Assembly: GCA_973895155.1 (NCBI GenBank)
Contig: OZ316892.1
Location: forward strand, 10,862,320 to 10,926,319
Length of the DNA stretch: 64,000 nt
DNA from: Marsupella aquatica
Taxonomy: Eukaryota; Plantae; Marchantiophyta
Reading direction: 5' to 3'
In this document: piece after piece, positions 33,011 to 59,249 of the stretch
Layout of the letters: each line of letters begins with the position of its first letter
Numbering within the stretch: the stretch's first letter is position 1
Program-made: the position numbers and the translations under genes
Notes under the pieces: generated by a model
Database searches by the model: none
Told to the model about the DNA's origin: nothing
Seen by the model: the letters and a program-made list of their open reading frames with translations, nothing else

Positions 33011-34825
33011 ATGGGAAAATGGGATTTGGAATCCGACGAGGAGGAAAAACCTAAAAAGATTCTATATTTATATTTACAACCTGCTCAGGATTTACACCTT
33101 TGGTCTCAGGATCAATACGCTGAAGAAGATTCTCAACCCATAGACGAGGACATTGGAATGAGTAGCAATCATGTAGGGCAAAGCATAACCAAAACGGATG
33201 AGGACACCAAGGATGTTGAATGGAATATCACAATGCCAAATATGAAACCTCCTCACAATGAATGACCCATCAACGCCAAAGAATTGGAGATATTGATGCC
33301 ACGTGTGGAGTTCCAAAAATGGATGAAAATCATTTTTGATGATGAAAATTTATGGGCCACAAGGTCTTGGATGCAAAAGAAGTACACAATGTCCAAGGTA
33401 ACACATGTGGAAATTGGCAAGCATTGGCAGCAAAGATTTCGAGAGTATGCTCCAAAGAAAGCGTAAGGCAAAACAAGCTCGGTTTATCCTCCTTTTCTCC
33501 GACTCCTAATTGCTGAATTTATTCTCAAGTGGAAGGTGGATTATCGTTGGGAAACAGAAGAGGGCAAGATGACTCACTCTGTACATCAGTCTGTCCTGGA
33601 CATTGCAGGTTTCAAGAACAACAAAAATACTACAAAAGATATGTCGAGTCAAGCAACCAACAAAGGGTCAAAAAGAAAGATACATGATGTGCAAGACATT
33701 CATGCACATCAGAAAGATAAGCCGACTGCACTGGAACGACTCTTCACTAAATCTGAAAGTTTCAGCGCACCAAAACATGTGGACAAAATATCAAACATTG
33801 CAGCATCTACAAGTAACAATTTACCAGAAAAGTTCACTGGTGTTTTGGATCCAAAGAAAGAATCATTGAGCATGGAGATTGTGTGCAAAAGTTTGGGCAC
33901 AGAGATTGGTCATTTGATTGAGAATAATCTCCGCACAAAGTTTTGTCTTGACCTTTGTGAAGCTGGCAGCATTGACTACTACAAGTCAAAGTTGCAAGAT
34001 AATGTTTTGAAGATGAAAGCAATGGAAAAAATGCCCATTCAAAGTGTGACTACTTTGGAGGTGAAGGAATACAAGGTGCAACTGTACGACAAGATGGAGG
34101 AGATTGCAAAGCTCAACAAACAACTTGCCCAAAAGGATGGTCAATGTAGTAAAATGAAACAAGTTCAAGAGGCAGATAGAGTCATTGAGGATTTGAAGAA
34201 TCAGGTTGCATCACAAGAGGTGATCATAAGCAATCTGCAAGAGGAGATCGAGCAAATGAACACTGCTGAGGTGGATGGGCAGTCAGACAAGGAAAAATCA
34301 AGATGCAAGAACTACAATTATATGAACTTGCAAATGATTGATCCTACGGGAGAATCTCATCTTTTTCCAGATGTGGAGGAGGATCCAGAAGATGTAGAGA
34401 AATTTTTTGACAAGTGGAAGACCGATGAAAGTATGGCCCAATTTGTTTGAGAAAAGGATGGAAGATGTACTTGGTGCTTGTATCCATGGGGTCCTGAATC
34501 TGTTTCCATTTTGGGAACATGCGGTCACTTATGGCATCATGCTTGCTTGTTTCGGTGGATGAAGAAGAGCCGAAAATGTTGGTGTCGGAAACCATTTCAT
34601 GAACGAGAGTATGAGCAACGAGGTTTGTTGAAACAAATACCACCAATGGAGACACAGCAAGACACTGAAGACATGACTCAAGAGAGTATTGCAATGGCAC
34701 AGATCGATTCAAGGCCCATTGACAACTTCATAGTTAATGAATACAACTTGTTAGATGGTGACTTTGACAATTTGCTATTCAGCGGTAGATTCCAACAGTG
34801 GAAGGAATATGCCATGGCGAATTGA
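33011..34825 (+). pseudogene. Cargo gene 2: coiled-coil plus C-terminal RING-H2-like finger (~604 aa reconstructed)
   Basis: ORFs 32969-33265, 33284-33466, 33536-34450 and 34478-34825 share one frame, broken by 3 single stops. The coiled coil is at ~34060-34270. RING pattern: CTWC-x14-CGHLWHHAC-x9-CWC. Confidence 0.8.
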
Positions 34826-35048: not shown

Positions 35049-36998
35049 TCAAGGTTGTGACGAAAAGTGCCTTGTGTTATTGTTCTCATTTTCTTGCAAC
35101 TGTCGATCAAATTGAAATTGTCTTGTCATCCATTGGACCGGATCTGCGCTATGATATTCTTGAAATGCCCCAACACGGGCATGTATGCTTGATGTGTATG
35201 GATTTGTCATGTTCTGTCTTTCATACATATTTTGTGTTGGAGAAGCATGTTGTCCCCACTGTGCATCATCAGGTTGCGCAAACAAAGTTGATGTTATTCT
35301 CTCAGGACAGAGCTCCGATGCAGCACCTCGTCGTTGAAATAAGTACGAAGTACTTGCTTGGACATCATTTTGTAGATTCAATGTTGGGTATGTGAAGGAT
35401 GGGTTTGGTTGGGAAGACACTACAAAGTTTGCATCAAATGAGTAGTCCTCGTCATCCTGAATTTGAGACTCATCGATTGTAGGGAACATCATTAAATCCA
35501 TTTCATCTTCCCATTCTCCGACATCACTTATTTCAGTATCTGGTGGAATACGAGTCAACATGTCACTATCAGTGTGTAATGATAATCCTTGCAAAGCCTC
35601 ATCTGCGTCATCAATTGTATCAAAATCCTTCACGTCATCCTCTCCAAGAGCTGCACATGTAACACCATGTTGTTTAGTGTGACATCCTTCTATGGAAGTA
35701 GGCCTCGGGCCATCATTTGTTGCTGTTATTTCATCATATCGTCTATACATAGACGTATGAGGGTTTCTCACCTTCGTGAGCCCTTTTTGCACCCTCGAAT
35801 TTGTGAATACAAAAACCAAGTCTTTTGCCCAATCATTGGTCAACCTATTACGGCTTTTTGAATGGATAAAGCCGTACGAACTCCAATTTCGTTCGCATGA
35901 AGATGCACATATTTGTTGATGCGTGATTCTTCTCGCCATCAATCTTAGCTCCGCGTAATCAGCTCCATACAAATGCCACCATTCTCCTGGACTTAATTTT
36001 CCAATATTTGATTGTGCTCCTCTAATTGCAACCGATGAATTTGGCAATTTTTGAGCCTCAAATGCCTGCATTTGGATGTCAGAAATAAGTGTCGTCACAT
36101 CTCGATCATGGTTGATTCCTGCCTTCACCTTGTGTTCTGCATATCTACGAACATAATCATTGAAGCTTCTATACAGTTCTGCATCTCCTGCCACATCTTC
36201 ATCTTCATCGAAGAAAAATTGAGGATTCAGATATGCTGCTGCTAACATGAAATCAGTAGTAAGTGATTTTTGTCGTTCCATATACACTTTCATTATCTTT
36301 GGTTTTAAGTAATCTGTTACTAATGTACAACCCTCCATGCTCGCCTCCAGTTTAGCTATTCCTTTTTTCAAGCTCCAATATAGCCAAGGAGATTGTGGTG
36401 AAACTCCATCGAATTCTCGCAACATCTTCACCAACGGCAGAAAAAAGCAACTGTAGATTTTACTTGAGCCCAAAATGTATCTTGCTGTATCCACGATTTA
36501 AGTTCGTCTGCCTTTCCCCTCGTCATATGCCCCTGTGACTTTGGTCGAACTGGCAGACGATCACGATAGGATTGCCATTTATCATCAGTGACCATTTGTT
36601 GTAAAGCTCCTCTTAGCTCCAATGCTCTCTGCGCCATTAAAAAATTTGTTGCAAATCTCGTTGCATTTGGATTTAACATCTTCCTGTCACCAGATTTCCT
36701 CACAAATATTGCAGACAACTTTTGTGATGATGTAACTGCTTTAACTATCCATCTCAAGTGCTTAAAAATCATTTTGAATGGATTTTTTTCTGCTCATCTA
36801 GCACAACATTCTTGTGGCCACACATGTCTTCTAGCAACAAATTAAAAACGTGGGCAGCACACCAACTTCATGTCACATGCGGATATTTTTTCATGACTAT
36901 CTCTTCACCTGCTACACGATTTGCAGGCGCCCCATCGGTAACAATTTGTATGATGTGATCGGCGCCAATGTCATCTATGTATTTTAACCACATGTCAC
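35049..36998 (-). pseudogene. hAT transposase, central and C-terminal part (DUF659-like/RNaseH-like core and hATC dimerisation domain)
   Basis: Motifs QIVTDGA, WCAAHVFNLLLED, PNATRFATNF, AAYLNP, EWWHLYG...ASSCERNWSSYGFIHSKSRNRL. One internal stop, a frameshift near 36440-36490, and interruption by the copia at 36999. Confidence 0.93.
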
Positions 36999-37343
36999 TG
37001 TTAGATATTGCTCTAGTCTTGTGACTCATGAGCTAACTACAGTTAGGCTAACTCGGGTTAGGACTTAGCTAATGTTAGCGGTAGTGCTGTTGTGTATATA
37101 GCCAGGGCTGATGCCAGACCCTGGTGGAACTTAGGCTCATTGTTACGGAGCTAGTTGAGAGATAGGGAGAGCTTGTGCTGTGGATGCTTGGTATGGCCGG
37201 TCGGCCTAGAGTGCAGTAAAGCTCTTGTGTGTTCCCGTGGACGTAGCCTCATGCAGAGGTGAACCACGTATCTCTCTGTGTCGACTATTGTGCGTTGGAG
37301 GGGTTCATGGGCTTGCCGTTACGAATGTCGTCAATGCTCAACA
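36999..37343 (+). repeat. 5' LTR of the nested copia
   Basis: 345 bp, nearly identical to 52917-53260 and 58906-59249. Confidence 0.96.
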
Positions 37344-38824
37344 AGTGGTATCAGAGCATGCCTGGGAGGTGACGAGGTTTTTTCGTGACAGGTTTTTTTT
37401 TCCAGCGTTCATTGTCGATGGTACATTCAGAGTTTCATCGCATGAAACTCGAATGTGTGTGGCTGAGCGGATAGGTTAGTGAGAGGGTTTTCTAACGGTG
37501 GTTAGAACTCGCTGATCGGTATCCGTGGTGCGGAGGAATTCAAATTTGCGTCATTCAGGTTTTATTCGTGTTTGACAGCTTTTCGGGGGAGAGACCAGAG
37601 ATCGCGTTCTTCAACGGTCTGAGCTATGCGGTGCGGGAGGGATCGCACATTATAGCTCAAGTTGAAGGTTGAAGCGAGCTGGTCATTTCAGTAGCTGGAT
37701 TGCTGCCGAGTTGTAACCGAGTGCGACATGATGAGTGAGGGAGGCGTTCAGGGTTTTTTCACAAGCTATGGAGCTTGTTCACATCTGAACCGGGTTTCTC
37801 TTCGTGACGTTCGACTCGGTGGAAGAGATGTGAAGTGCCACGGCTCAACGGATTGATCGCGGTGAGGCGGTCGTTTTGAGTCCGGGATTGGTACTTGACG
37901 CGGAGTGAAGGCGACGCGGTGGAATTAATTTACTCTGTTGGAACAGCAGAATGTGCCGGTGATATTCGGCCACTTTCCCCATCGGCGGTGGTCACTTTCC
38001 TCAAGCAAACGGCAAGGCAAGAGTATCATTTTTGCTTTGGGTGGCAGTTTTGTTTTAGGTTACTATAGTGTGATTTTTTTGTGTGTATACACACGTAGTA
38101 AACTAAATTTTTTTGGGGGGCCTTTCGCCCTTCGCCCGAGCGCCCCTTGTATTGCCGTCAGCCGCGAAGCGGCTGTGCCCTTCCGGCTCCCTCCTATCTC
38201 GCCGGACCAGTACCCCAGCTGCGTACGCAGCCGTATTTTCACACGAGTGAACCTCCTGTGTACCTCGGCATTGTACCCGGCCCTTATACCGAGTATTTTT
38301 TGGTAAGGGGCCTTTGCACCCCCTTTTGGGTGCTTTTTTATTTCCTTCTTTTCCTTCCCTTTTGTTCTCCTTGTCACGGGACCTGCCGCCCTCCGATTTA
38401 ACCGCTCCGATAGGGGGAACGGCCCCCTGTGAGACCTGTCGGACTGTGCGGGAATATTCCCGAAAAACAGAGAGCTGTTTTTCGGTCGTCCGGCAAAGAT
38501 TCTGTCCGCCGAACGGTAACTTTTTTGGTTCTTTTTTGGTGAGGAGGTTGCCACTGGAGTTAGCAACGTGGCGCACCGATCACATCACGATTCCGATGAC
38601 GGGTTATACTGGGTATTTTGGTTATTCTCCGAGGTGGTCAAAATGGGGGAGTTTCCCAAGGTTTTACCCACCCCGACCGAAATTTGAATAACTTTTCCGT
38701 CGAATTTTGATTTTGATTTCGGCTTTCAGTATTGGACTCCTAGCTTCGTGGGCTACGCGGCGATGTTGAGTTTTGAGTTTTGTGAGAAGTTTCAAAAAAA
38801 GACGTTTTTTCGTGATTGTTTTAT

Positions 38825-41800
38825 ATGAGTGACTCGGAGGATACTGGAAGAATTGGCGTCGGTGGAGCTTCAGGATCGCGACGTTCAGGCGGAGAGTCTG
38901 AGGAGGAGCTGCTACCGTTTGAGGAGGAACAAGTAATACCGGTACGATCACCGGTGCAACGTGCAGTGGAGGAAGCTGTACTACTACCAGAGCTGTCGGT
39001 AGTGGGGAAGAAGAGGCAGATGGCTAGATTTGGAGGAGTGAAGTTTGAGGTGGAGAAGTATGATGGTCGTACTGATTACTTGTTGTGGGAGAAGCAAGTG
39101 AAGGGTGTTCTTCGGGCCATGGGCTTAGCTCATCTGCTTTCTTCGCGAGAGCAATATGATGGAGAAGAGGAGATCTTAGAGAAGCAGTGGAGACAGGAGC
39201 AGGTGATTGTTGTCAATGCAGTGATGCTATATCTCAAGCCGCACATCATCAAGCAGCTGGATGATTATGCGGATTGCGCGTCACTGTTCAAGGTTCTTAG
39301 AGAGAAGTACTACCGGGAATATGCGTCAGACCGGCTGTACAAGAAGTCTCTCTTGATGAGCCTCAGGCTCAAGGAATGGAGCAAGATGCAGGATCACCTG
39401 GATGAGTTTGACAGTCTAGCGATGGATCTGTCAAACCTGGGAAAAGGAGTTGAAGATGAGGATAAGGCCTTGCTTCTGCTAAGCTCCTTACCGCCGTCAT
39501 ATCAGGGCTTGAAACAGGTGCTCTTGTATAGAGATCTAAAGTCCATTTTGTATAATGAGGTGGTGAGCTCCTTGCTGTTTGATGATGTTCAAAAGAAGCT
39601 GGGTCAATCACAGACAACATCTTCTTCTGGCACTGCGTTGAATGTGAACCGTGGAAGAGCAGCACAGCGCACGAATGGGCAGAACAGGTTTAGATCTACA
39701 TCACGGGGGAGATCTAAATCCAAAGGAAAATTGGAAGAGAGGAAGCCTCTTGCATGTTGGAATTGTGGCAAGCCAGGCCACATGAAAAGGGATTGTCGAG
39801 TAAAGAACCCTACTGCATCTGCTAACGCGGCATCGAGCTCGCATGAGGTAGATTTACTCGATGATGATGACATATTGTGATGTCAAGGTTATGCTCTCAA
39901 CGTAGTGTCAAATCCAGAGAGTGATGACTGGATTCTAGATAGTGCATGTACTTTTCACATTTGCTCTAGGAGAGATTTTTTCAGTTCTTACACGGATTCC
40001 AACGGGTCAGTGTTGATGGGAAATGGAATCCCATGTCAAGTTGTTGAACTTGGATCTGTAAGATTTCAGATGTTTGACGGTGCTGTGAGAACGTTGAGGA
40101 ATGTGAGACATATTCCCAGCATGATGAAAAATCTCATTTCACTTGGAGTTTTAGAAGCAAATGGCCATCAGTGGAGTTCTGCTAATGGTGTCCTTCAGGT
40201 TTCAACTGGTACTAAAGTTGTATTGAAGGGAAAGAGACATAGCAATCTATACATTTTGGAGGGCTGTGGAGTTTGTGATGAAGCCAATGTAACCTTATCT
40301 CATGAGGAGACGGCCCGGCTGTGGCACTTCCGTTTGGGCCACATGAGTGAAAAAGGTTTGGTTATTCTTCAGAAGAAAGGATTACTTTCTAATTTGCAAT
40401 CTTGTAAGTTGGAATTTTGTGAGCACTGTGTGCTAGGGAAGCAGCACAGGAAACCCTTCGGAGTTGGAACTCACACCAACAAGGAGATACTTGAGTATGT
40501 ACATAGTGATGTGTGGGGTCCAGCCCCTACTCCCTCACATTCTGGATGATTATACTATGTCATGTTAATAGACGATTACTCAAGGTATGTGTGGATATAT
40601 TTTATACACAGTAAGTCTGATGTTTTTGCCACTTTTAAGGAGTGGAAAGCCCAAGTTGAGAATCAGACTGGTAATAAGGTGAGATATCTACGATCGGATA
40701 ATGGCGGTGAATATAGTTTCGGGGAATTTAGAACGTATTGTAAGGATCAAGGGATAACCCACCATCTCACAACAAGTTATACTCCTCAGCAGAACGGTGT
40801 TTATGAGAGACTCAACCAAACACTGTTGGACCGCTCGAGGAGTATGATGAGTCAATCATGCTTACCACATGAGTTTTGGGCTGAAGCTGTCAACACTGCA
40901 GCTTATTTGGTAAATTTTTCTCCATCCAGTTCTATTGGATTCAAGACACCATATGAAATGAGGTACATGCGTCCAGCAGATTATTCATATCTGAGGATTT
41001 TTGGATGTGATGCTTATGTGCTTACACCTTCCCAGCTTCGATCCAAGCTGGAGTCCAAGTCGAAGAAGTGCATATTCCTTGGCTATCAGAAAGGTGTGAA
41101 GGGTTATAGGTTATGGGATCCAGTAACCTGTAAACTAATTGTCAGTAGAGATGTGTCCTTTAATGAGTCCAGATCATCAAAGGAGGGGGAGAGTTCTCAG
41201 GACTCCCATACTGACAAGGGGAAATCTCCCATCCCGGACCCGGTTGAGGGGGAGATTAGTCATGATGCAGTTCATGACAGGAGAGATGGAGAAGCTCCGG
41301 GCTTGGAGCTGGTTCCTGCGATGGAACAAGAGGAGCAGATTGTTGCTAGGGTACCTCAAATTCAACCAGCAACAATAGCAGATCAGCCTGAGTCATCTAC
41401 TAGAAGAACTTCCAGTCGTTCTACTAGAGCTCCTACCAGGTATGGTCAATGGGCAGACTCATCTAAGCTAGATGATATTGACATTGCACCTGATGATGAT
41501 GACATGACTTTGATCTTGGAAGAAGGAGAGCCTTCTTCGTACAGTGAGGCTTGTGCTTCAGAGCAGAAGCATGAGTGGAATGCAGCAATGCAGAGGGAGT
41601 TGCAATCTTTGAGTGACAACAAGACATGGGAGCTGGTGGAGCTTCCAAGAGGTCAGCAAGTGGTGGAAAGCAAGTGGATTTACAAGTTGAAGGACAGTCC
41701 TTCAGAGGGTGGAGATAAGATCTACAAGGCAAGGCTTGTTGCCAAGGGGTTCACTCAGAAGAAAGGAGTGGACTACAATGAGGTCTTTTCACCGGTGGCT

Positions 41801-42757
41801 AAGTATTCCACAATTCGGATCTTGTGTCAGCTTGTTGTGTTTTTTAATCTGGTGATGGATCAGATGGATGTTGTTACTGCTTTTCTCTATGGCAACTTGG
41901 AAGAGATGATCTTCATGAGACAACCACTAGGCTTTATGAAGAAGGGCCAAGAGAACTTAGTTTGCAGATTGCTCAAATACTTGTATGGATTGAAGCAATC
42001 TCCCAGACAGTGGAACAAGCGGTTTGATGATTTCATGCTTGCTCAAGGTTTTACAAGGATGGTGTATGATCCTTGTGTGTATACGAAATCAGTCAAGAAT
42101 GATGTATTTGGTTTCATCATTCTGGTGATCTATGTGGATGACATGCTGATTGTGGCTAAAGATCAATCTGAGGTTGACAATCTCAAGGCGAAATTGAGTG
42201 CTGAATTCAGGATGAAGGATCTTGGTAAGGCCAAAAGGATCTTAGGGATGGAGATTTTTAGGAACTCTGATACTGGACAGTTGTGCTTGAGTCAAGGCCA
42301 GTATGCGAGGAAAGTACTTGCACGATTCAACATGGAAAACTGTAAGCCAGTGAGTATTCCTTTAGCTTCACATTTTAAGTTATCATCGGCTTTCTCTCCT
42401 ACGGATTCTGTGGAGAAAGGTTTGATGGCTAAGATTCCTTATGAGAAGGCAGTAGGTAGTCTGATGTATTTGATGACTTGTATTAGGCCTGACTTGGCCC
42501 TAGCGATGGGCAAGGTTAGCAGATTCATGTCAAATCCAGGGAAGGTACATTGGGAAGCTGTGAAGTGGATTCTCAGGTATCTGAAGGGTACACAGGACTA
42601 TGGATTACTATTTGATAACAGATCAGATAGAACGTTAGTTGGCTATGTAGATTCTGACTATGGAGGCTGTCTGGATACAAGGAGGTCTACAACTAGGTTT
42701 GTATACACTCTTGGAGGAGGATGTATCAGTTGGAAATCTACCTTGCAGAAGTGCATT
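38825..42757 (+). pseudogene. Copia gag-pol (gag, zinc knuckle, PR, GAG-pre-integrase, INT, RT, start of RNaseH)
   Basis: Motifs KFEVEKYDG, CWNCGKPGHMKRDC, WILDSACTFH, LWHFRLGH, HSDVWGP, LRSDNGGEY, YKARLVAKG, YVDDML. One frame with in-frame TGAs at 39878 and 40547; cut by the CACTA at SWKSTLQKCI. Confidence 0.95.
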
Positions 42758-43402
42758 CACTACAACACTACCGACCCCTTTTGCGAACCCCGTCCCATCG
42801 CAACTAACAAAGGACCAAATTATGAAATTCTGGCGTTTGCGAAACGCTACGCATCGTAACTCTTTCGCATTCTTTGAAACCCACAGCTTCACAATCGGAC
42901 TTTCGCAACCCCTTCGCAACACCTTCGCACACTGCGAAACTTATTTTATCGCACATAAATCACATTTATGCGATCTCGACAGACTCTTTATCGGTTTGCG
43001 ACGCGCTCTGAACTATAACTTATTTGCGAAGCTGTTGTCTTGACAATTCCGTTGCCATTCATATTGTATCGCATAACTGCATCAGTCAGGGTGTCGCACA
43101 ATTGCGGAACCAAAAGTATCGCAATGTTCCAATAATCAATGTATGGCAAGTTTGTGATAGTATGGCGTTCGCATGTGTTTCGCAAGGATAGTTTGAGGGC
43201 TTGGTTTTGTATATTTGGGTTCATAATTGGGTTGGGGTCTTATTTCTCCACATGAAGATACCAAAGCAAAACTTTATATATGCCAAAAATCCCTGAATGT
43301 ACAAAAATTAGGGTTTTCTAAAACCCTATGGGGTATCAAATACCAAGACACTGTCCTTTGACTAATCCATATGCCATACGGAGTGAACTACATCTGCATC
43401 CT

Positions 43403-45428
43403 CTAGAATGGAGCCCGCCTACTCCTCTTTGCTGGCCTCTTCCCCTTGTCCTTCTTGCTTTGGGCGGGACGAGCTGGACGGGAGGGGGGTGGTGGTGGTG
43501 GTGGCGGTGGTGGTGGTGCCTGCTGCTCCTCCCCATCTGGCTCATCCTCATCATTGTCATCATCCTCATCATCATCCTCCTGGTCTCCTGGTGTGCTAGG
43601 TGTGGCAGCACTCCCTGCCCCTCTAGACCCACTCGTGGTGGCCCCGGTAGTGTCCCCATCATCAGCGCCGCTATCCTCCTCACTGCTATCCTCACTCCCC
43701 TCCTGCTCCTCCTTATCCTGCTTCCATGTCACAAGGTTAATTCGGGTTTAGGGTTAATAGGAAAAATGTATAAACCTTATAAATGGAATGGGTGCGGGTT
43801 TAGAAGGGTACTACAAATCACTCACACTAGCCAACTCTGCATCAACCAACTCAAAGAGATGTCTGGCCCCATGCTCTGCCCCTATCTCCATCTCCTTTGT
43901 TGTTATCTTGCGGCGGTACCTCTTATACTACCACAAAAAAATGAAACACCAAAACATAAGGGGCCCGGGTTAGTAACTAAGGGTACTTAAGCAAAAAAGG
44001 AATCCTAAAAAGGGTAAAAAGGGTACCCTAACCAGAAAAAACCCCATTACCCTAACAAACAAGCTTTGCGAAACTCCCACCTTCGCAAATTCAAATATAT
44101 TTAAGTTTGCGAAATAGACTGCGAATTGGATTGCCTCGCAATGGCTTCGCAAACCTTACGGGAAAAAGGTTATAATAGAGTTTGCGAAACAATTGCGAGG
44201 CAACCCGCTTCGCAATTGTTTCGCAAATTGTGCTTTTAAAAAAATCCGAGAAATGGCTAAGGCACGCAATGTGTCAGGGTGACCTAAAATGAAAGGGGAG
44301 GCCATAAGGGGTAAAGCAGAGGTCTGCAAGGGGCATTGCAGGCAAGCAAACAACAATTGAAGGCGAAGGAAAAGAAGCAGGGGAGGAGGGGAGAGGACTC
44401 ACGAAGGTTGCTTTCAGGTCGGGAAGTCCACCTTGCCCCATCTTGTGTGTGGTCTTGGGGCGTTTGCTGACTCGGTCTGCTGCAAGGATGAACTTCTGGG
44501 GTGGTGTCCCCACTTCATCCACGATGTGCTGCAGCTGAGAGACCTTCTCAGCCAATGCCTTGAGGTCTTTGTCTGACTTCCCGGCCTGAAGTGCCTTGGC
44601 CTCCTTCTCCTTCCAGAATTGGAGGTCCTTGGTTGCTTTCAGCTGCACCTCGACCTTATAGAACGCGTTCCACACATCCTCTGTGAATTGCACTGGCCTC
44701 CTCACGTTCCTGTACTCCTGCAAGCTTGCCAGGTAGGCCCTCACCTTCCTCCTATCATGGTATCGTGCTTGAGACATTGAATTCGAAATTCTATTTGTAA
44801 GCCACTGGTCATCAATCTCTGCTCCATTTCTGAATGAATCTTTGACCTGAGTCATTACTTTCCTCTGCTCTGCTCTGCTTAGTTTCCCCCACTCAACACC
44901 TCGTGCAAAGCTAGTCCTCACAGCAAGCCTGATAGTGCTCTTTGCCCCAATGTAGGCCAACTCAGTAGGAATGCCCTCAACCAAGGCAATCAATGGCAGC
45001 TTCTTCCTCTCTTCCTCCTTTTTCCACTGCGCCTCACGTTGTGCTCGAATCTCATCTCGTTCCTCCCTTCTCCTCTTCTTTTCGAGGGCTGCAGGAGAGA
45101 GTACTCCTGCCTTAGCCCTCTCCTCCTTCTTTCGTTTATTCTCTCTGGCCTTCTCCTCAGCTACAGCCTTTGCCTCTTTCTCCCTCTGAGCCTACCCTGC
45201 TGCAACCCCGGTTTGCAAAGCTTGCCCTAGAATTGCACTCAAAGAAGCAATCCCAGCTGGTGTACTCAAATCCAAATGGCTCAGCTGTGTGGCATTGAGA
45301 TGCTCGGCCATCAAATTCGTCCATTGATTACTCTCCTCATTCCTGTTCCCTCCATTGCCATTGCCACTCCCACTCCCACTCCCACTTGCCCCTGCCCCAT
45401 CCCCTCCACGCCCTCCACTAGAATCCAT
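43403..45428 (-). CDS. CACTA ORF2/TnpA-like gene, divergently transcribed, 3 exons (~480 aa) with one premature TAG
   Basis: Exons 45428-44403, 43927-43826 and 43717-43403 have GT-AG boundaries, all phase 0; TAG at 45192-45194. Contains a charged coiled-coil, HKMGQGG (resembling the H..G..G motif of En/Spm ORF2 proteins) and an acidic, poly-Pro, basic tail. Confidence 0.6.
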
Positions 45429-46794
45429 AGCTATCCAACACCAAGCGCGCACAAGCTCTCCTCCTGCCCTCCCTCACTTCAAAAAACGTCGAATGGGCCT
45501 TGTAACCCGGCGGGAAGGTCCGAATGCCCAGACAAAACACATTTGCGACGCAGTCCACATCGCAATTTGCGAATCAGCCCGCTTCGCAACTAGTATCTCA
45601 ACTTTCCAAAACCAATGCGAAACCACACGCTTCGCAAAGCCTTCGCAAAGCTGCAGACACGCGAAAAAATGCTCTCGGGCTCTGTTTTTCTGAAGCTATT
45701 GCGAAACATTTTGCTTCGCAAATAATGTGACCAAATTCTGAAGCAGGTTGCAAAGCAGGTCGGTTCTCAATATCGTGGCAATTCCTGGCGAATTTTTTTT
45801 TCACATTCTTTCCCTCCTCCTTTTGTTTAGGCCATGTAAGTTATACTATGCCCTTTTGTGTAATTAAGAAATTCCACCGTTTCAAATCCCGGCGTTTGTT
45901 AGGGTTGGGTCTTGGATGAAGCTGGTTTTTTTAGGGGTTAAAAGCGAGATTACCAGTCAAACATTCCGTTTTTTAAGCTATACATGGTGTGGGTGTAGGC
46001 TAATTTTGATAAGAGTTGGGTTTTGGTTTAAAATTAATAAGTGAGGAAAGGGTTTAGGATTAAAGTTGGGTTTGGGTTTAGGGTTTAAGTCTTTAATTTT
46101 GGGTTTAAGCAGGGTTTGCATTTGTGGTTGTAGGCTTTTAGGGTTCAAGCAAGGGTTTAGGGTTTAAAACAAAAGAGAGGAAGGGGATTGGGAGTGAGGG
46201 TCTAGGTTTTTGTAATAGGTCAGAGGTTTGGGGGTGAGGGTTTGGAAAAGGCAAAGCAAGGTTAGATGAGATTAATGTTTTAGTTGTTTTACCATGGGTT
46301 TTATGGGTTTTAATGGGTTTTATGGATCTTTTGGGTTTTAATGGTTTTTCCATGGGTTTTATGCTAACAAAGGAGGAGGAGCTATGACAACTTGCAGGGT
46401 GCGGCACTTTTGCATGAATTGATACTAGCTAATGCGTATGCATCGTATGAGCCCGGGCATCTGGAGGTACGGACTAAAATAGATGGGTCTAGTTAGGCTT
46501 ATTCATGTAATTAAAATTTTTGGTTCCCACTATCTATAAAGAGGACATGTATGTAAGGTGTTCGCTTTGTGTACTTGCAGCTTTTCTCATACTTCCAGAT
46601 TCGGTTCATTATTTTAGAGCCACAAGACCTATTGGCACCGCTGAGCCTGGGTCTCAGAAAGATATTTTTTAGTGTTCCTTTTGTGTTTGGTTTCATGTCA
46701 TCATTACTTGAGAACTTACATTTGTCCAGCTTGATATTGTGATGTTATTTGGTAATAACCCCTAACTTGCAAATTATACATCTTTGTAGGGGCA

Positions 46795-47945
46795 ATGTCT
46801 TCATCTTCTAAGATCTCCACCACAGATTCTTCCTCCTCCGATGAAGATATACCACCTCCTCCTCAACCTCACACGACTGCACCTCCTCCTCGTGGTCCAC
46901 CCCGTCAGCTTTGCCAATGTGCCAAATGCGTGGGTCAGGTTTCCCAAAAGTCCTATATATGCACCCAGCATATTGAGAGATATGGACGTTACGGACGTCA
47001 TACAACAGGGGCTTCCTCATCCCATGTGGTAAGTGTTTACGCCTTAGTTTCTACCCTATTTCCACATTGCAATGGTGAAGGTTTTTAATTTCACACCTCT
47101 TGTTGTTTGTTTTGGTTTGGGTGGAATAGGTATCTAGTAGGCCTAGACCTGCGGCATCAGCACCTTATGTCCCATCACAAGGTGTTCTAGATGCTATAGG
47201 CAATGCATTCTCACAAGCCTTGGGTCTAGCAACAACCCCCTCCAGTCCTAGGGCAGTTGGGGGTGAGCCTGTTGTCCCAAGAGGGAGAAAGCGTTCCAAG
47301 AGACGGCCCCGAGGGGATACTGATTTGTACAAGGCAGTGGTTACCGGTAGGTGGGGTGATTGTGAGTTTACTGGCAGATGTGTTCCTATCATCAAGGACT
47401 GGGATCCCCAGACTCTTGGTTTGCCACAAGAGCTTTCCTATGGTGAGGAGGTAGAGGTTTGGGGAAGACGTTGGGTTATCAAACCTTCCACACTTGGGGA
47501 TAGACATGGCTATGGAGTTTTTGCTTGTGAAGACATCATTGTGGATACCGAGAGTGGTAGTGGTGGACGCGGTCGAGAAGGACCTACGTTGTTTCCTTAT
47601 GGTGGACCCATCTACAAGAGAAGACATTGGAACATGATCCTTGCACAACATCCTGAGTGGAAGACTTATGCCTTGGAGTTAGATACTTTTGATGGAAACA
47701 CTAGGAGGTATAGTGAGGAGCGGGTGATAGATGGGGACCCCATACGAACTGGGTATATAGCTGGTTTCATAAACAGTACTGTGGGGACTCGCCCCAAGCG
47801 TAGGCAAAATTGTGAGTGGGTTTTCATTGAGGGTCCTCCACCAGCCCCTTATGGCCAGACATATCATCATGACCATTGTCTGGTTGTAGCTACTAGGACC
47901 ATTCACTCAGGTGATGAGTTGTTTACTCACTATGTGTGGGATTAG
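46795..47945 (+). CDS. Transposon-encoded zinc-knuckle plus SET-domain protein (349 aa; exons 46795-47028 and 47130-47945)
   Basis: Exon 1 has CQCAKC-x13-HIERYG (CACTA transposase-associated type). Donor GTG/GTAAGT and acceptor AATAG are phase 0. SET motifs: IKPS..GYGVFA..DI, FPYGG, YAL, IDG, GFINS...NC, VVATRTIHSGDELFTHY. NLS-like RGRKRSKRRPR. No stops or frameshifts. Confidence 0.82.
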
Positions 47946-50900
47946 AAAATGACCATACACATGGCGTTTGGCCACATTTTGTATTTACACCAGTACCGAT
48001 ATTATTTCATGTTTACACACCCCCATATATTCTTCTACATGTTGTAACTATTTGCTTTGTAACTTTCAATTGTTTGCATTGTTTTTAGAATGTGCGACCC
48101 TCTCAAAATATGTTACCGCGGAGATTGAGAGCAGCATATCGGGAAATGGGTATGCCAGAAGAAGGACAAGGCTCTGAGTCACATTCCTCATCAAGTGACA
48201 GTGGAAGCAACAACCCTGATTGCAATGTACCCAGAACATATGAACAGGTTATTGATGACCAAGATAGAGCCATGGATGATTTTATGGTTGATTGGTTTGG
48301 TGTTGACGTCCCTGGTGATGATGCTGAGGTGTCTGCTGATCAAGGAGGTCATGTGCCCCCCAATGATCCACGACCAAGACATACCCCCAAGGGACAGCGC
48401 CAATGGGAGGAAGCAGAGGAACATGCCCGAACTCCTATCTATGAGGGTGCTCGTTTGAGTCATCTTTCTGCTATCTTGGGGTTGATGAATCTACAGGCCA
48501 AACACAAGGCAAGCAATGCCTTGTTATCTGATATGTTTGCACTTTGCAATGACCTTATGTTACCTTCTGGCAATGTGTTGCCAGGAACTTGGAAGGAGGC
48601 CAAGCGTGTTCTCTCATCAATTGGCATGGAATATCATATCATTCATGCATGTGTGAATGATTGCATGTTATTTCATGGGGCCGATGAGAAGAAGACACAG
48701 TGTACTGAATGTCATGAGCCACGGTATGACCCCAACATGATTACAAAGAAGGTGCCAAGAAAAGCTGTTCGTTGGTTTCCCATCATTCCTTGGTTGTTGC
48801 ACATGTACAGGTGTTCTAATTTGGCAGAGTTGATGGTATGGCATAAGACTCATCGATCAAAGCCTGGTGTTATGCGGTTGCCAATTGACTCTCCTGCAGT
48901 CAAACATATTGAGGAAACATGGCCAGACTTTGCACATGATCCTCGTCATGTGAGGTTGGGATTGGCATCTGATGGGGTTAGTCCTCATGCCCTTGGAGGC
49001 AAGGGAAGACCTACATCAGTTTGGCCTATGGTTGTGATGAATTATAACCTTCCACCATGGCTATCCATGAAGAAGGGGTTCCTCTTGCTGTCTTTGATTA
49101 TTCCAGGTCCAAAAAAGGTGAAAAACTTTGACACTTATTTGGCACTATTGATTGGAGAACTCCAAAAACTGTGGGGTGGAGTGTGGGCATATGATGGCAG
49201 GAAAAATACAGGAGGCATTCCACGTGTATTTAAATTGAGAGGGGTAGTTTGTTGGACAATGCATGACTATCCTGGTAAGATGACTTTTTGACCATATGCC
49301 ACCCTTCTTTGATATGCTCTTTAATATACTTGTTTGTCATGTGACAACCCTAACATTTAGTCTGGTTTTATTTTTGGTGTAACCAGGGTTTGGCTTTGTC
49401 TCTGGATTGCAAACTCAGGGGTACAAAGCTTGCTCCACCTGTGGTCCACAATTGCAAGATATGGCAATTTGGTCCCCATGGCTTAGGAAGATTGTTTACA
49501 TTGGGCATACAAAGTTTCTTCCAATGGGGCATGAGATGAGGTCTGACCCACTTTTATTTTCCTCCTTTGACATGCCCCTTAGTGATATGCGGGAAATTCC
49601 GGAACCAACAACTTTTGGGCATTGGAAGTCACTAGCTGATAGGGTGGCAGACCCTGATGATCCCCTCACCTTTGATGGTACTGGGTTGACGAGGTGGAGT
49701 ATACTAGCCAGTTTGCCCTATTGGTCAGAGTTGAAGATCCGCCATCTTTTAGACCCCATGCACATAGAGGGAAATGTGGGGAAGGCGTTGATAGCTCATT
49801 TTTATGGGGAGAAGGACACTAACTTCAGGGAGGCATGTGAAGAGTTGGAAATGCATCCAGATGTATGGGTACAAGTTGATCCTGCCACAGGTTTGGAACA
49901 TCGTCCTTCTGCTCCTTGGGTGCTTAGTGTTGGCCAAAGATGTGAATTCCGGAATCGTATAGGGGAGATGCAATTTCCTACAGGCTATGGTGCCAATTTG
50001 AGGAAAGCTTTTGGGATGGAGGACAATCACAAATGGCCACGGTATCTCAAGACACATGACTATCACCGCTTATTGCAGCATATATTGCCAGTGGCAATTA
50101 TAGGGTTGGGGATCAAAGAAGTGCAAGATGCCATTTGGTCATTGGGTCGTTTGTTGAGATGGATATGCTCAAAGGAGATATATGTGGAAGAGATTCCTGG
50201 AATGGAGGTATTGGCAGCTGAGGTGGTTTGCAAGTTGGAGAAGGCCCTCCCTCCTTCCTTCTTTGATTGTCAGGTTCATTTACTTGTGCATCTTGTGAGG
50301 GAGGTTGCCATTGCTGGTCCAGTTCATTGTCGATGGATGTACTGGCTTGAGCGTTACATGTCAGTCTTGAAGGCTTATGTACGTAACCGTGCACGAGTGG
50401 AGGGAAGCATAGCTACAGGATACTTGGCTGCAGAGAGCATGTTTTATTGTAGTAACATCTTGGCCACCATTGATCGGACTTTACCACGTACTTGGATGGA
50501 GGAGAGGCAAGAGGAGGAGGACCGTTTAACAGGAGCAACAAAAACACGCATGCTTACATCAACAGAGTGGACACAGTTGAATACATTCATGTTGAGTAAT
50601 AGCAATGTCATGGATGAATGGAGGGAGTTTTATGACAATGCCAAAAGAATGAGTCAAAGGGCAAGGATTTTTCCTAAGTTGCATGAGTTTATGAAGGAAA
50701 AGTTGGTTGAGTTGGATGGCATTTTGGCACAAGGAGGAGATGTCTCACAGTTTCCTACTATGACAAATGACATTCGGACCATTGTTCATGGCCCTTTGAG
50801 AGTGGTAACATCCAAGACGGCCATGTGGACCCAAGGGAGACACTTCAGGTTTCACTAGTTCCTAACCTTGTTTTCCATATTCATGTACTACTACTTAAGA

Positions 50901-51506
50901 TATAGTAATCATTTTACTTAAGATAAGTGTGTTTTTCTCTTTTGGTATGAAAGGTTCCTCATAACATGATTAGTGTTTTTTGTGTAGTAGTAACAATATA
51001 TGGGTCTTGTTAATTTCAGGATTTCTTCCCTTGATGAGAAGAGGGCTCGTACTTTTGATTGTGGAGTTCAAGGGCAGTTTTGTCAGGACTCCCGGAGTAG
51101 CCGACATGACAGGAACATTGTTCGTGATGTTGTGCCACACTATGGGAAGATAGAGGAGATTTTGGTGGTCTCATATGACAACCAATCTAAGTTTGAGGAG
51201 TATGTCTTCAAGTGCAAGTGGTTCAAAGTGAACCTTGTTGGTAATAATCGCACTGTACTCCAAGATGAGAGTGGGTTTACACGGTTGAGGACAAGTGCCA
51301 CTAGTTTTCAAGCATCTCATTGGCAAACGTCAGAGCCATTTACTTTCCCATCTCACTTGGAGCAATGTTTCTACGTTCCATACCCCTTAGACCCAGAGTG
51401 GTCACTTGTCATCACATATGTGCCACGGTCTCGTTCCATTGTTTCAGACAAGCCAGACACTATTTTTGTGTCAGATGTAGAGGACATTGAAGGTGACCAA
51501 GTGTGA
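46795..51506 (+). CDS. CACTA TnpD-like transposase (Transposase_21 plus DUF4218/DUF4216-like regions), apparently intact, ~1122 aa
   Basis: Exons 46795-47028 (shared, inferred), 48089-49274, 49387-50848 and 51020-51506 have GT-AG boundaries and consistent phase. Motifs IHACVNDCMLF, RHVRLGLASDG, YNLPPW, MHDYPG, LDPMHIEGNV, LKTHDYH, GPVHCRWMY, FKCKWF. Confidence 0.92.
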
Positions 51507-52364
51507 GAGACACTTATGGATATTTAAACCAAAAATCTATATCATGGATTGTTCATGTTGTTTCTTAATTAATATTTCATACACCATTAGTGTGGTAGGT
51601 ATTTTCATTTTGGACTCCTACTTTCAAAAGAGGTCATGCATATAAGTGACATGGGTACTCCCTCCCTTATCCCTCCTCCCTCTTTGAACCCAAACTCTCC
51701 TTCCTCTTCCAAAAACTCCATAGCTTTTTCTCCTCCCTCCCTCTTCGCTAAAGTCTCTCCTATTTTTAGTAAACCCTCTTTGGACTCCCTTCTTCCTCCG
51801 TCCCTCATCCACCTTCCAACTCCCTTCCTCCCTCTTTCACCTTTCACCTCCCTCCCTCCTCCTCCCCCATTCAAACTCTAACCTAGATGCACACACAAGT
51901 CTAACATAAACGTTTGCGAACTGTTTGCGAAACTAAACAAATCCCAACCAAATCGCAATTCTGCCATTTAAACCGTTTCTCAATTATTCCATACTATACG
52001 CTTCACTATTTTGCGATATCCAGACCATCCCACCTTTACCATCCATATTGTTTCGCACATTTGCCATACAAACCCATCGCAAATTGTTTGAAGCTAACCT
52101 TTTCGCAAACATCCTCCAATCCTAATTGTTTTGCATCATTAATGTTACCGTGGTTTCGGACTTTCGGAGCAGTCGCGGAGCCTTCGTAATGTGTTTTGTA
52201 ATCTCTGTAGTTTCGCAAACTATTGTGATACAATAAAGTTTGCAAAATGTTTGCGATGCAAATTGCGATGCGTATTGAGTCATCAACGGTTTGAAGCATC
52301 TGGAATCGCAAACGTGTGTCCGGACTCAAATGAGCTTCGCAAAAGGGCAAAATATGTTGTAGTG

Positions 52365-52709
52365 ATATCTCAGTCTACTACAGAAGGAGAGTATGTTGCA
52401 GCAGCAGAAGCAGCAAAGGAAGAAATTTGGTTGGACAAGTTAATTGCGGAGATGGGTTTAGAGCATGGCAAAATGACTCTAAATTGTGATAGTCAGAGTG
52501 CTCTGCACTTGGCTGCTAACCAGGTGATGGATAGCAGGGTGAAGCACATTGATATCAGGTACCATTTTATCAGGCAAGCAGTGTCTGATAAAACTTTTGA
52601 GCTAGTCAAGATTGATGGAAAGCTCAATCCCGTTGATGCCTTTACCAAAGTGATTTCTTTGGAGAGTTTCTCAAGACATCGTGCTACTTTGCAGGTTTTG
52701 CAGTTGTAG
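52365..52709 (+). pseudogene. Copia RNaseH C-terminal part (continuation after the CACTA)
   Basis: SQSTTEGEYVAA, CDSQSALHLA, KHIDIRYHFIR, NPVDAFTK. Confidence 0.95.
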
Positions 52710-52916
52710 TGCAAGTAGAGTTATTTAACAATGTGTGACTATTTGTATATGGATTACTCATTCCTGTTTGGCTACGGCTTAGTTCTAGTTAACCCTTAGT
52801 TAACCCTTGTGGTTTTTAGGGGGAGACCTGGTTTGGTGATTGTCTAGAACTTCCCGCTGAGGATTCCATATGGTAGCATTTAGTCTAGTCCCCAAGACAA
52901 GAGTCAAGGGGGAGTT

Positions 52917-53260
52917 TGTTAGATATTGCTCTAGTCTTGTGACTCATGAGCTAACTACAATTAGGCTAACTCGGGTTAGGACTTAGCTAATGTTAGCGGT
53001 AGTGCTGTTGTGTATATAGCCAGGGCTGATGCCAGACCCTGGTGGAACTTAGGCTCATTGTTACGGAGCTAGTTGAGAGATAGGGAGAGCTTGTGCTGTG
53101 GATGCTTGGTATGGCCGGTCGGCCTAGAGTGCAGTAAAGCTCTTGTATGTTCCCATGGACGTAGCCTCATGCGGAGGTGAACCACGTATCTCTCTGTGTC
53201 GACTATTGTGCATTGGATGGTTCATGGGCTTGCCGTTACGAATGTCGTCAATGCTCAACA
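52917..53260 (+). repeat. 3' LTR of the nested copia
   Basis: 344 bp, preceded by the PPT and followed by TSD GTCAC. Confidence 0.96.
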
Positions 53261-53545
53261 GTCACCAAGATACTTCCCATCTTTCTTGTCGGCTTGTGCA
53301 GCGTTCCAACTATCCAAAAAGAAATCTCCTTTTGAACTCAACAACATGACATTCATCAAAGGTTCCCTTCGGATATTTTCCCATCCATCGGATGAAAGGG
53401 AATATCCAATAGGTTTTGCCTCCTTCATTGTTTTTGTCATGTCCTTTGTAAGATCAACTCTAGCCTCCTCCAATAATTTCATTCTCAAATTTCGCATACC
53501 CGGAAGAGAATATCCATTTACAATCCCTTTCGAGGTTTCTGTGAC
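53261..53545 (-). pseudogene. hAT transposase 5' fragment (N-terminus apparently missing)
   Basis: GYSLPGMRNLRMKLLEEAR...SLSSDGWENIRREPLMNVML...KDGKYLGD joins in frame across the TSD to MWLKYIDDIGADH at 36993. Confidence 0.9.
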
Positions 53546-53998
53546 CCGGGCCGGCCCTCTTTCCTCCCCCCACCCGGCCCTCGTCCGCCCCCTCCCCAGG
53601 CCCCCCTCCACCCGGGCCGGGCCTCCTCCCCCCCCCCACCCGGGCCTCCCTCCTCCCTGCTCCCACCCCTCCCTTCACCCGGGCCGGGCCTCCTCTCCCC
53701 CGGGCCTCCCTCCACCGGGGCCGGCCCTCCTCCCTCCCCCCACCCGGGCCTCGTCCTCCTCCCCACCCGGTCTCCTCCCCCCCCCACCCGGGCCCCCCTC
53801 CACCCGGGCCGGGCCTCCTCCCTCCCCCCACCCGGGCCCCCCTCCACCCGGGCCGGGCCTCCTCCCTCCCCCCACTCGGGCCTTCCTCCACCCGGGCCGG
53901 GCCGGGATGTAAAGCCGGGGCGTAAAGCCGGGCCGGGGCCGGGTGACGAGAGGTAAGGGGGGGGGGCCGGGCCGGGAGAAGTTCGGGCCGAGCCGGGG
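53545..53998. repeat. Right subterminal array of the hAT element (CACCCGGGCC(GGGCC)TCC units)
   Basis: More than 10 degenerate CACCCGGGCC units with C tracts, followed by a G-rich GCCGGG segment. Confidence 0.9.
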
Positions 53999-58138: not shown

Positions 58139-58470
58139 TGTTGAACTAAGACGTCATTCGCAATGACCATACAACCATGACTTATTCCATGCACACGTAG
58201 TCGACACAATCTCTACGTGGTTCACCTCTTCTCCAAGGCTACGTCCACACAAACACTCAAGCTTTACTTCAAGAGTAAACGAACACACATGCTCTCCCTC
58301 TTCCTCAAGTTGCTCCGTTACAATGAGTAAGCACCACACACCAGCGGCTTACACTAGCCCTGGTATATACAAGGTCACACACGACTAACCTAACCTCAGC
58401 TAAGACCCTAACTGTGGTTAGCCTAAGTGCCGTAACCTTTGAGTCACAAGACTAAGAGCAATCCTTAACA
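58139..58470 (-). mobile_element. Solo LTR of a related copia family
   Basis: TG...CA, 332 bp, TSD CCCAA on both sides. The reverse complement starts TGTTAAGGATTGCTCTTAGTCTTGTGACTC, similar to the 36999 LTR start TGTTAGATATTGCTCTAGTCTTGTGACTC. Confidence 0.85.
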
Positions 58471-58905
58471 CCCAATACACACAATCCAATGGTGACCAAA
58501 ATGAGTCTATATACTGTGTTTGATGACTGGATTGTATTCCGTCCATTCAAGTTTGTAAGCACACTATGAATTTTTTGACAGGTTTACATATTATAGTAGT
58601 TGATGACAATGCACCAAAATGGGTCAGAGAAAATCCAATGATCCAGCAAGGAAATGTTGCCCCATCTAGTGCTTGTCCAGAGGGGAAGATATTTTCTTGT
58701 AGTGGATGGAGGTGGAGGTGCTGGCATAGTGATTGTAGTTGAAGATTTGAGCAAAGTAGACGACGTACCAGGACTGGACTAGCCAACTTTTATTCTTGAC
58801 TTACATTTTCCCTCCACCAACTTCAAGTGTACATTTGTTTATTGAATTGTCCTTTGAAATTGGATGCCATGAAGTTTTGATTTGTGTAAATTGGTTGTTG
58901 TTGTA

Positions 58906-59249
58906 TGTTAGATATTGCTCTAGTCTTGTGACTCATGAGCTAACCACAATTAATCTAACTTGGGTTAGGACTTAGCTAATGTTAGCGGTAGTGCGGTTGT
59001 GCATATAGCCAGGGCTGATGCCAGACCCTGGTGGAACTTAGGCTCATTGTTACGGAGCTAGTTGAGAGATAGGGAGAGCTTGTGCTGTGGAAGCTTGGTA
59101 TGGCCGGTCGGCCTAGAGTGCAGTAAAGCTCTTGTGTGTTCTCGTGGACGTAGCCTCATGTGGAGGTGAACCACGTATCTCTCTGTGTCGACTCTTGTGC
59201 GTTGGATGGTTCATGGGCTTGCCGTTGTGAATGTCGTCTATGCTCAACA
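58906..59249 (+). mobile_element. Solo LTR of the same copia family as 36999-53260
   Basis: 344 bp, highly similar to both LTRs; TSD TTGTA on both sides; no PBS or PPT adjacent. Confidence 0.95.

Follow-up and report, generated by a model that had tools for sequence, protein, structure and literature searches.

In the liverwort Marsupella aquatica, an open exon bearing the motifs of a SET domain was found inside a transposon of the CACTA type. This raises the question whether such an exon belongs to the transposon or is a captured host fragment in decay, and, if it belongs there, what a methyltransferase-like protein might do for a mobile element. The window analysed here is a stretch of 64,000 nucleotides, and all positions refer to it. 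The features which delimit the element and its insertion site are the following:

36999..53260, + strand: host Copia element, with LTRs at 36999-37343 and 52917-53260
42758..52364, no strand assigned: CACTA/EnSpm element of 9,607 bp, delimited by its TIRs, by the empty-site joints 42757->52368 and by Copia domains on both sides
42758..42787, + strand: left TIR, CACTACAACA...CCCTTTTGCGAA, with the flank ATT
42758..43250, no strand assigned: left subterminal region with 10 copies of TT/TGCGCA-type hexamers
52336..52364, - strand: right TIR, CACTACAACA...CCCTTTTGCGAA, with the flank ATA

The element starts with CACTA and finishes with TAGTG, as is characteristic for CACTA/EnSpm transposons, the definition of which follows the accessible part of PMC4158355. 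The sequence CACTACAACA at 42758 recurs as its reverse complement ending at 52364, with 10/10 terminal bases identical, and the two TIRs also have the 12-mer CCCTTTTGCGAA in common. Seven distinct runs, with contigs of DNA or unknown type, were compared with the window; exact splice joints were not observed in these contigs, which has no bearing on expression. In contigs from three of four runs, a joint 42757->52368 was identified which skips 9,607+3 bases. These contigs represent Copia copies without the CACTA element, with a 3-bp duplication; in the window, the target-site duplication reads ATT on one side and ATA on the other, two of the three positions matching. The location of the SET exon inside CACTA TIRs, as stated in the original prediction, was confirmed both by the terminal bases and by the empty-site joints.

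The CACTA element is inserted in the RT/RNase H region of the Copia element. The Copia LTRs differ by 6 mismatches and 1 gap in 345 (98% identity), and the Copia target duplication is 5 bp long, GTCAC. Since the Copia element is young and empty copies of it exist, the CACTA element has therefore moved recently, with the SET exon aboard.

The TT/TGCGCA-type hexamers are present in 6 copies at the right end of the element, and 31 were counted within the whole element versus 19 in the preceding 42.7 kb. Internal clusters of the same hexamers were observed at 44050-44260, in an intron of ORF2, and at 45500-45760, between ORF2 and exon 1; these are candidate binding sites for an element-encoded protein.

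The Copia element itself splits a hAT transposase, with Pfam domains identified on either side (Dimer_Tnp_hAT at 35049-36497 and DUF659 at 53255-53674, both on the minus strand). The hAT region, 29600-54100, has GC-rich repeat blocks at about 29.8-30.3 kb and about 53.5-54.0 kb, and TIRs of the hAT element were not found in it. From the left repeat block to the hAT transposase, the + strand contains a protein-kinase frame at 32011-32826 (PF00069 with E 2.4e-14), followed by a coiled-coil frame at 33467-34450 and, at 34451-34825, by a RING finger (PF13639 at the cut-off). The kinase and E3-ligase frames are possibly cargo of the hAT element. An extra LTR, likely a solo LTR, was observed at 58903-59249; it is 95% identical to the Copia LTRs and is adjoined by an older inverted LTR-like piece at 58198-58470.

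The SET exon and its relatives

Between the TIRs, the predicted coding regions are arranged as follows:

43403..45311, - strand: ORF2, a divergent gene with about three predicted exons, 55-65% identical in related loci
46795..47028, + strand: exon 1, 78 codons, with a Ser-rich start, a CxCxxC-x13-H motif and the phase-0 donor GTAAGT
47130..47945, + strand: SET exon, 271 codons, supported by Pfam SET and a structure model
48089..49274, + strand: TnpD exon 2, with a phase-0 acceptor, ASDG (first catalytic Asp) and MHDY (second); PF02992 with E 7.6e-37
49387..50848, + strand: TnpD exon 3, with C(2)C, THDYH, the catalytic Glu (LERY) and DUF4218
51020..51506, + strand: TnpD exon 4, with DUF4216 and the stop codon

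The SET exon consists of a low-complexity and basic linker (residues 1-61), a small beta subdomain (about 68-110) and the SET core (111-268). The SET motifs had been predicted to follow each other in one open exon, and all of them were located in order in the 271-codon frame: GYGVFA at 127-132, YGG at 157-159, GFINS at 212-216, NC at 227-228 and GDELFTHY at 261-268. The proposed HMMER check gave a PF00856 match to residues 127-268 (E 4.2e-5), the 24.4 bits of which exceed the curated cut-off (22.4). The chain ends with VWD and a stop, 3 residues past the motif-IV Tyr. The basic stretch PRGRKRSKRRPR, noticed before as NLS-like, is present and represents a putative NLS. Joining exon 1 (ATG at 46795) to the SET exon via the GT..AG intron 47029-47129 reproduced the predicted product of 349 aa.

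For ORF2, a main exon to 44403, a small exon at about 43830-43930 and an acidic/basic last exon were predicted. ORF2 gave no Pfam match and is likely a TnpA-like accessory gene. The window copy of ORF2 contains a premature TAG at 45192-45194; at position 45194 a different base was found at full depth in contigs of two runs and partly in a third. In the SET exon, an exchange of Asn209 to Tyr at 47754 is private to the window copy, since Asn is present in 63/69 members and the Asn codon was identified in contigs of all runs listed at this position. The private exchange together with the stop in ORF2 suggests that the window copy may itself be inactive or impaired.

Proteins related to the SET exon have been identified in other bryophytes. 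A word-indexed protein search gave 42 proteins, of which the named ones belong to five Sphagnum species, Calypogeia fissa and Riccia sorocarpa. Among the named proteins, that of the liverwort Calypogeia fissa is the closest, matching at 73% across the SET exon and at 88% across 162 core columns. A whole-library search resulted in 85 clusters at 50% identity, including one repetitive artefact (P0058), and among 50 relatives scanned, 30 contained PF00856 at E<=0.01. An Atlas search with the SET part returned SET clusters from Streptophyta and then Haptophyta, which is to be taken as a lead only, and no match to the SET exon was found in phage records.

One metagenome scan revealed 42 related SET loci. 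TnpD was identified downstream of SET in 23/26 loci with at least 300 bp of downstream sequence, exon 1 upstream of SET in 18/22 loci with at least 400 bp of upstream sequence, and ORF2 upstream in 11/16 loci with at least 1.8 kb of upstream sequence. The order ORF2 / exon 1 / SET / TnpD is conserved across the related loci. In the loci in which TnpD is missing (L025, L034 and L035), a piece of SET breaks off into other sequence. L024, L037 and L039 represent a single fragment truncated at its 5' end; L026 is likewise 5'-truncated, with TnpD present, and L018 and L023 contain exon 1 and have no ORF2 within 2.7-2.9 kb. In four loci, the left TIR was identified about 3.5 kb upstream, at three different insertion sites; among the related loci, none contained both element ends. 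The fragment common to L024:3286, L037:10001 and L039:10001, which come from three samples, follows a pyrimidine-rich stretch ending in GCAA and has an unrelated flank; this fragment is possibly lodged in or near a host gene.

Gene models running SET into the N-terminus of TnpD have been produced automatically for one Sphagnum and five Riccia sequences. Two of them, P0079 and P0086, belong to separate, well-supported branches far from the SET of the window, which implies that the linkage of SET and TnpD is old. The expectation that SET might occur in sister elements and in other bryophytes was therefore borne out in mosses as well as in liverworts.

In the tree, which is unrooted and carries no clade test, the SETs of Sphagnum, Calypogeia and the window form one shallow clade, and a single Riccia genome contains at least two deep SET lineages. 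This pattern could reflect horizontal transfer between bog mosses and liverworts, or old lineages that were retained. In the runs X3, X4 and X12, a second SET-bearing family was observed, which looks more abundant and has the same exon layout with divergent introns; to judge by these sequences, related samples contain several SET-bearing families side by side, at least two in number.

An exon captured from a host SET gene would be expected to decay neutrally. The proposed comparison of dN/dS across copies was carried out on the 27 of the 42 loci in which 80% or more of the SET core is covered. Between the window and these loci, values of 0.14-0.21 were obtained, which indicate purifying selection and amount to about two independent comparisons, most loci being from one family and thus not independent. 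Bootstrap intervals were 0.08-0.33 for the four loci tested. L001 represents another family, at dN 0.09 and dS 0.5 from the other loci. Within one family, sister copies gave a dN/dS of 0.65, and many copies are broken, with stops in the SET core of 10/27 related loci, which is what a neutral capture would predict. However, TnpD likewise gave 0.65 among sister copies, and such a value together with the stops is as expected from decay after insertion. In addition, the linkage of SET to TnpD occurs in three deep branches, and the 85 matches of the whole-library search include no canonical host SET.

At fourfold sites, divergence was the same for SET and TnpD, with 33/66 (0.50) versus 133/255 (0.52) in L015 and Fisher p values of 0.30-1.0 in four loci. 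This implies that the exon has travelled with the transposase. Swapping of a SET cassette was also considered, as the Nei-Gojobori dS was lower for SET (about 0.8 versus 1.2-1.7 for TnpD), and was rejected because the fourfold sites are equal. The single-copy, neutral capture of a host gene, named beforehand as the outcome that would speak against the prediction, is refuted by the selection and linkage results: sister loci keep the layout, and purifying selection is found between families. The probability left to it is negligible.

Predicted splicing of exon 1

Exon 1 ends in phase 0, and the acceptors of SET (47130) and of TnpD (48089) are both in phase 0. In the related loci, the GT of the exon-1 donor was found in 17/17 cases and the AG of the TnpD acceptor was kept in 21/23. 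The seven codons ahead of the first Met of TnpD are conserved, being NVRPSQN in the window and mostly NIRPSED elsewhere. This implies that TnpD exon 2 needs an upstream exon, and exon 1 was the only phase-0 upstream candidate found.

When the SET exon is skipped, exon 1 and the TnpD exons form an unbroken frame of 1,122 aa with GT..AG introns. This frame contains ASDG, MHDY, CSTC, THDYH and LERY, the DDE residues and motifs of a Tnp2 transposase, and its three transposase exons match PF02992, PF13960 and PF13952. The C(2)C and H(3-4)H motifs of CACTA transposases are used here as defined in the available part of PMC12730594. Since one phase-0 exon fits both SET (349 aa) and TnpD (1,122 aa), alternative splicing is likely, and exon 1 is probably common to two predicted splice forms. 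For maize En/Spm, TnpA and TnpD are described as alternative isoforms in the accessible text of PMC13547354.

The CxCxxC..H motif of exon 1 is kept in distant family members. A match to PF13963 (Transpos_assoc) was obtained with one exon-1 homologue only, and it is weak (E 0.031, below the cut-off); exon 1 gave no usable match in the Atlas search.

A different organization would be one in which SET and TnpD are separate genes, or parts of one fused protein, without splice forms sharing an exon. In public gene models, SET is the only partner to which exon 1 is joined, and in 6 models SET runs into TnpD. None of the 14 proteins found with exon 1 has it joined directly to TnpD, and longer proteins holding TnpD residues 1-200 were not found, which is weak evidence. 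Separate tandem genes are also used by some Arabidopsis EN/SPM families, according to the portion of PMC13547354 available. However, the SET stop is separated from the TnpD acceptor by no more than 143 bp, and this acceptor and the codons before the first Met are conserved. Of the 23 loci inspected, nearly all retain the SET stop, and use of the sole donor-like site near the end of SET, which is not in phase, would cost the protein its motif IV. Separate genes or a fusion are for these reasons considered very improbable, and two splice forms with a common exon 1 are the preferred reading.

Fold, active site and possible role

A structure model of the SET protein was built from an alignment of 69 sequences, with a pLDDT of 90.5 and a pTM of 0.86. 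An earlier model from 34 sequences was set aside (pLDDT 54.5). The structure search which had been suggested for the predicted protein showed that the SET fold is present: the top Foldseek matches were SET8, LegAS4 and MLL1, with E values of about 2e-7 to 6e-7, and 293 matches were obtained at E<=0.001. In VIA-align, EZH2, Set1, SET7/9, SET8 and LegAS4 tied with Z 11-12, with an rmsd of 2.2-3.0 A across 117-135 residues. Single-sequence and first-profile searches of solved structures gave nothing useful; with the profile of 69 sequences, the best match was LegAS4 (E 1.3e-5).

The particular likeness to vSET or SET7/9 which had been proposed was not found, as SET8, SET7/9, EZH2, Set1 and LegAS4 tie. 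Algal and giant-virus SETs match the model about equally well (20 at E<=0.001), and in these model comparisons no SET donor stands out. Because the tied matches include enzymes for K4, K20, K27 and K14, the histone mark is not predictable from the fold. SET8, SET7/9, EZH2, Set1 and LegAS4/RomA have the same fold, motif order and Tyr at the catalytic position as the bryophyte SET and are 17-26% identical to it; unlike the bryophyte SET, all of them continue past motif IV.

The motif residues are conserved in a family which has diverged to 25% identity. The motif-I glycines are present in 58/62 and 61/62 sequences, an aromatic Tyr or Phe in motif II in 65/65, two further Tyr residues in 65/65 and 65/68, the motif-III Asn in 63/69 and the motif-IV Tyr in 54/57. 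The glycines of motif I, the aromatic residue of motif II and the Tyr of motif IV are in register with those of SET7/9. At the motif-II position (exon residue 157), Tyr was observed in 47/65 members and Phe in 18/65. This position presumably affects the number of methyl groups that SET enzymes add, and the variation suggests that subfamilies may differ in their product.

Canonical SET proteins close the SAM and lysine pockets with a post-SET segment. Residues 27-210 of the model correspond in the alignment to SET7/9 198-338, after which the chain stops. Of 54 members, 27 end 5 residues or fewer past the motif-IV Tyr and 41 end 10 residues or fewer past it; longer tails are not conserved, and the family has no post-SET or cSET segment. 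The original prediction had noted this missing segment, which proved a weightier concern than was assumed there. It had placed the doubt on catalysis mainly in motif III, with NS for the canonical NH. The His is indeed absent, in 0/69 sequences, and the Asn-His pair is not formed in the family; however, the doubt drawn from it is weaker than supposed, since LegAS4, with YINFS at motif III, is likewise without the His. LegAS4 methylates H3K14, and its cSET helix moves on histone binding, as described in the accessible part of bioRxiv 10.64898/2026.05.29.728679. The family has two conserved insertions and the extra beta subdomain, which are absent from solved SETs. On the basis of the model, either an insertion, a partner or the substrate would replace the post-SET segment, or the protein would be a binder.

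For the zinc-finger-SET isoform, the role of a SAM-dependent lysine methyltransferase which is produced from the alternatively spliced transcript and acts on the element's own chromatin is given an even chance. One pre-mRNA would be spliced in two ways, giving either the 349-aa zinc-finger-SET protein or the 1,122-aa transposase. The enzyme would be brought to the element by the CxCxxC..H finger which both products have in common, or by contact with TnpD or ORF2. The lack of a post-SET segment would be made good by a partner, the substrate or a second subunit, which would close the SAM pocket. The SET protein would then methylate a lysine on chromatin at the copies of the element, and the mark would favour expression or mobility of the element, as an anti-silencing function.

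Alternatively, the SET protein may be a catalytically dead or weak pseudo-enzyme, serving as a histone-tail reader or decoy. By binding lysine or methyl-lysine it would protect the element against silencing, or it would tether the transposase to chosen chromatin. The complete lack of the motif-III His and of a post-SET segment fits this reading, the two insertions and the extra beta subdomain could be binding surfaces, and a reader would show the same selection. In contrast, the Gly and Asn residues on the SAM side and the Tyr at the catalytic position are as conserved as the substrate side, and with LegAS4 an active enzyme without the His exists. A reader or decoy is considered rather unlikely.

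The protein could also be an active lysine methyltransferase for TnpD, ORF2 or a host silencing protein, regulating transposition after translation. SET7/9, which ties for the best fold match, has many non-histone substrates. Lys/Arg-rich stretches are present in TnpD and ORF2, and the SET exon co-diverges with TnpD; the closest profile match, LegAS4, is however an enzyme for histone H3. A non-histone target is regarded as improbable.

With the methyltransferase acting on chromatin as the preferred reading, a more comprehensive proposal can be formulated. In it, a histone methyltransferase encoded by land-plant CACTA elements would have been a splice form of the transposase gene since early bryophytes, one zinc finger would deliver either the cutter or the writer, and the minimal SET would be active only once TnpD, ORF2 or a second subunit completes its pocket. 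Taken as a whole, this proposal is speculative and rather unlikely to hold in every part.

Comparison with known systems

The SET of the bryophyte CACTA elements is real, under selection and mobile, in a layout common to mosses and liverworts. Transposons carrying a SET gene have been described repeatedly, none with a tested function in the literature examined. HarbingerS and oomycete MuDR families and Helitron SET captures are cited in PMC12730594, which refers to Repbase Reports, and in the Bostrychia preprint (bioRxiv 10.1101/2025.02.11.637652), in the parts of these sources which were available. The same preprint describes PAG2 of the red-algal Plavaka elements, members of the EnSpm/CACTA superfamily. 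The original prediction had named SET as not known to be a standard CACTA domain; the EnSpm superfamily provides a precedent for it. For land plants, no report of a CACTA element with SET was found in a literature which was mostly without subscription journals and Repbase.

HarbingerS, the SET-bearing MuDR families and the Helitrons are, like the bryophyte CACTA, DNA transposons with SET methyltransferase-like cargo. They belong to other superfamilies and hosts, and the accessible texts name no land plant and describe no exon shared with the transposase. A transposase or ends of the Harbinger or MuDR type were not found in the element of the window, which instead contains Tnp2 and CACTA ends.

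Plavaka is the closer case, since both it and the bryophyte CACTA are EnSpm-superfamily transposons with a SET whose function is predicted; for PAG2, a change in transcription has been proposed in the available part of bioRxiv 10.1101/2025.02.11.637652. There, PAG2 is described as a separate gene encoding a fusion of an adenine DNA methylase and SET; it is part of a cassette of three genes in elements of 17-19 kb. In contrast, the bryophyte CACTA has a stand-alone SET exon in a plant-type Tnp2 element of 9.6 kb, with exon 1 likely shared. Of a PAG1-3 cassette or an adenine methylase, nothing but SET was identified in the bryophyte CACTA, which has no room and no Pfam match for the rest.

Two proteins from one alternatively spliced unit are known from maize En/Spm and from Arabidopsis EN/SPM3 and 7, as far as the accessible portion of PMC13547354 describes them. 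In maize En/Spm the second product is TnpA, whereas in the bryophyte CACTA the predicted second product is SET, and ORF2 is a separate, divergent gene. Element-encoded anti-silencing factors, shown or supposed, are VANC of VANDAL (MuDR) and the TET/JBP proteins of fungal transposons; according to the available part of PMC12730594, VANC does not belong to the SET proteins and has been demonstrated to work, and TET/JBP acts on DNA. For the SET of the bryophyte CACTA, an anti-silencing role is inferred.

The SET-bearing CACTA places such an exon in mobile elements of land plants, near Marchantia-type models in which its function could be examined. If the protein is active, a transposon would write histone marks itself rather than recruit or block host enzymes, and a SET enzyme would work without the segment thought to close the active site. 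With a shared exon, one splice choice would also govern how much writer is made relative to transposase. From the SET transposons known so far, the bryophyte CACTA is set apart by its host, its branch of the superfamily, its likely shared exon and its truncated C-terminus.
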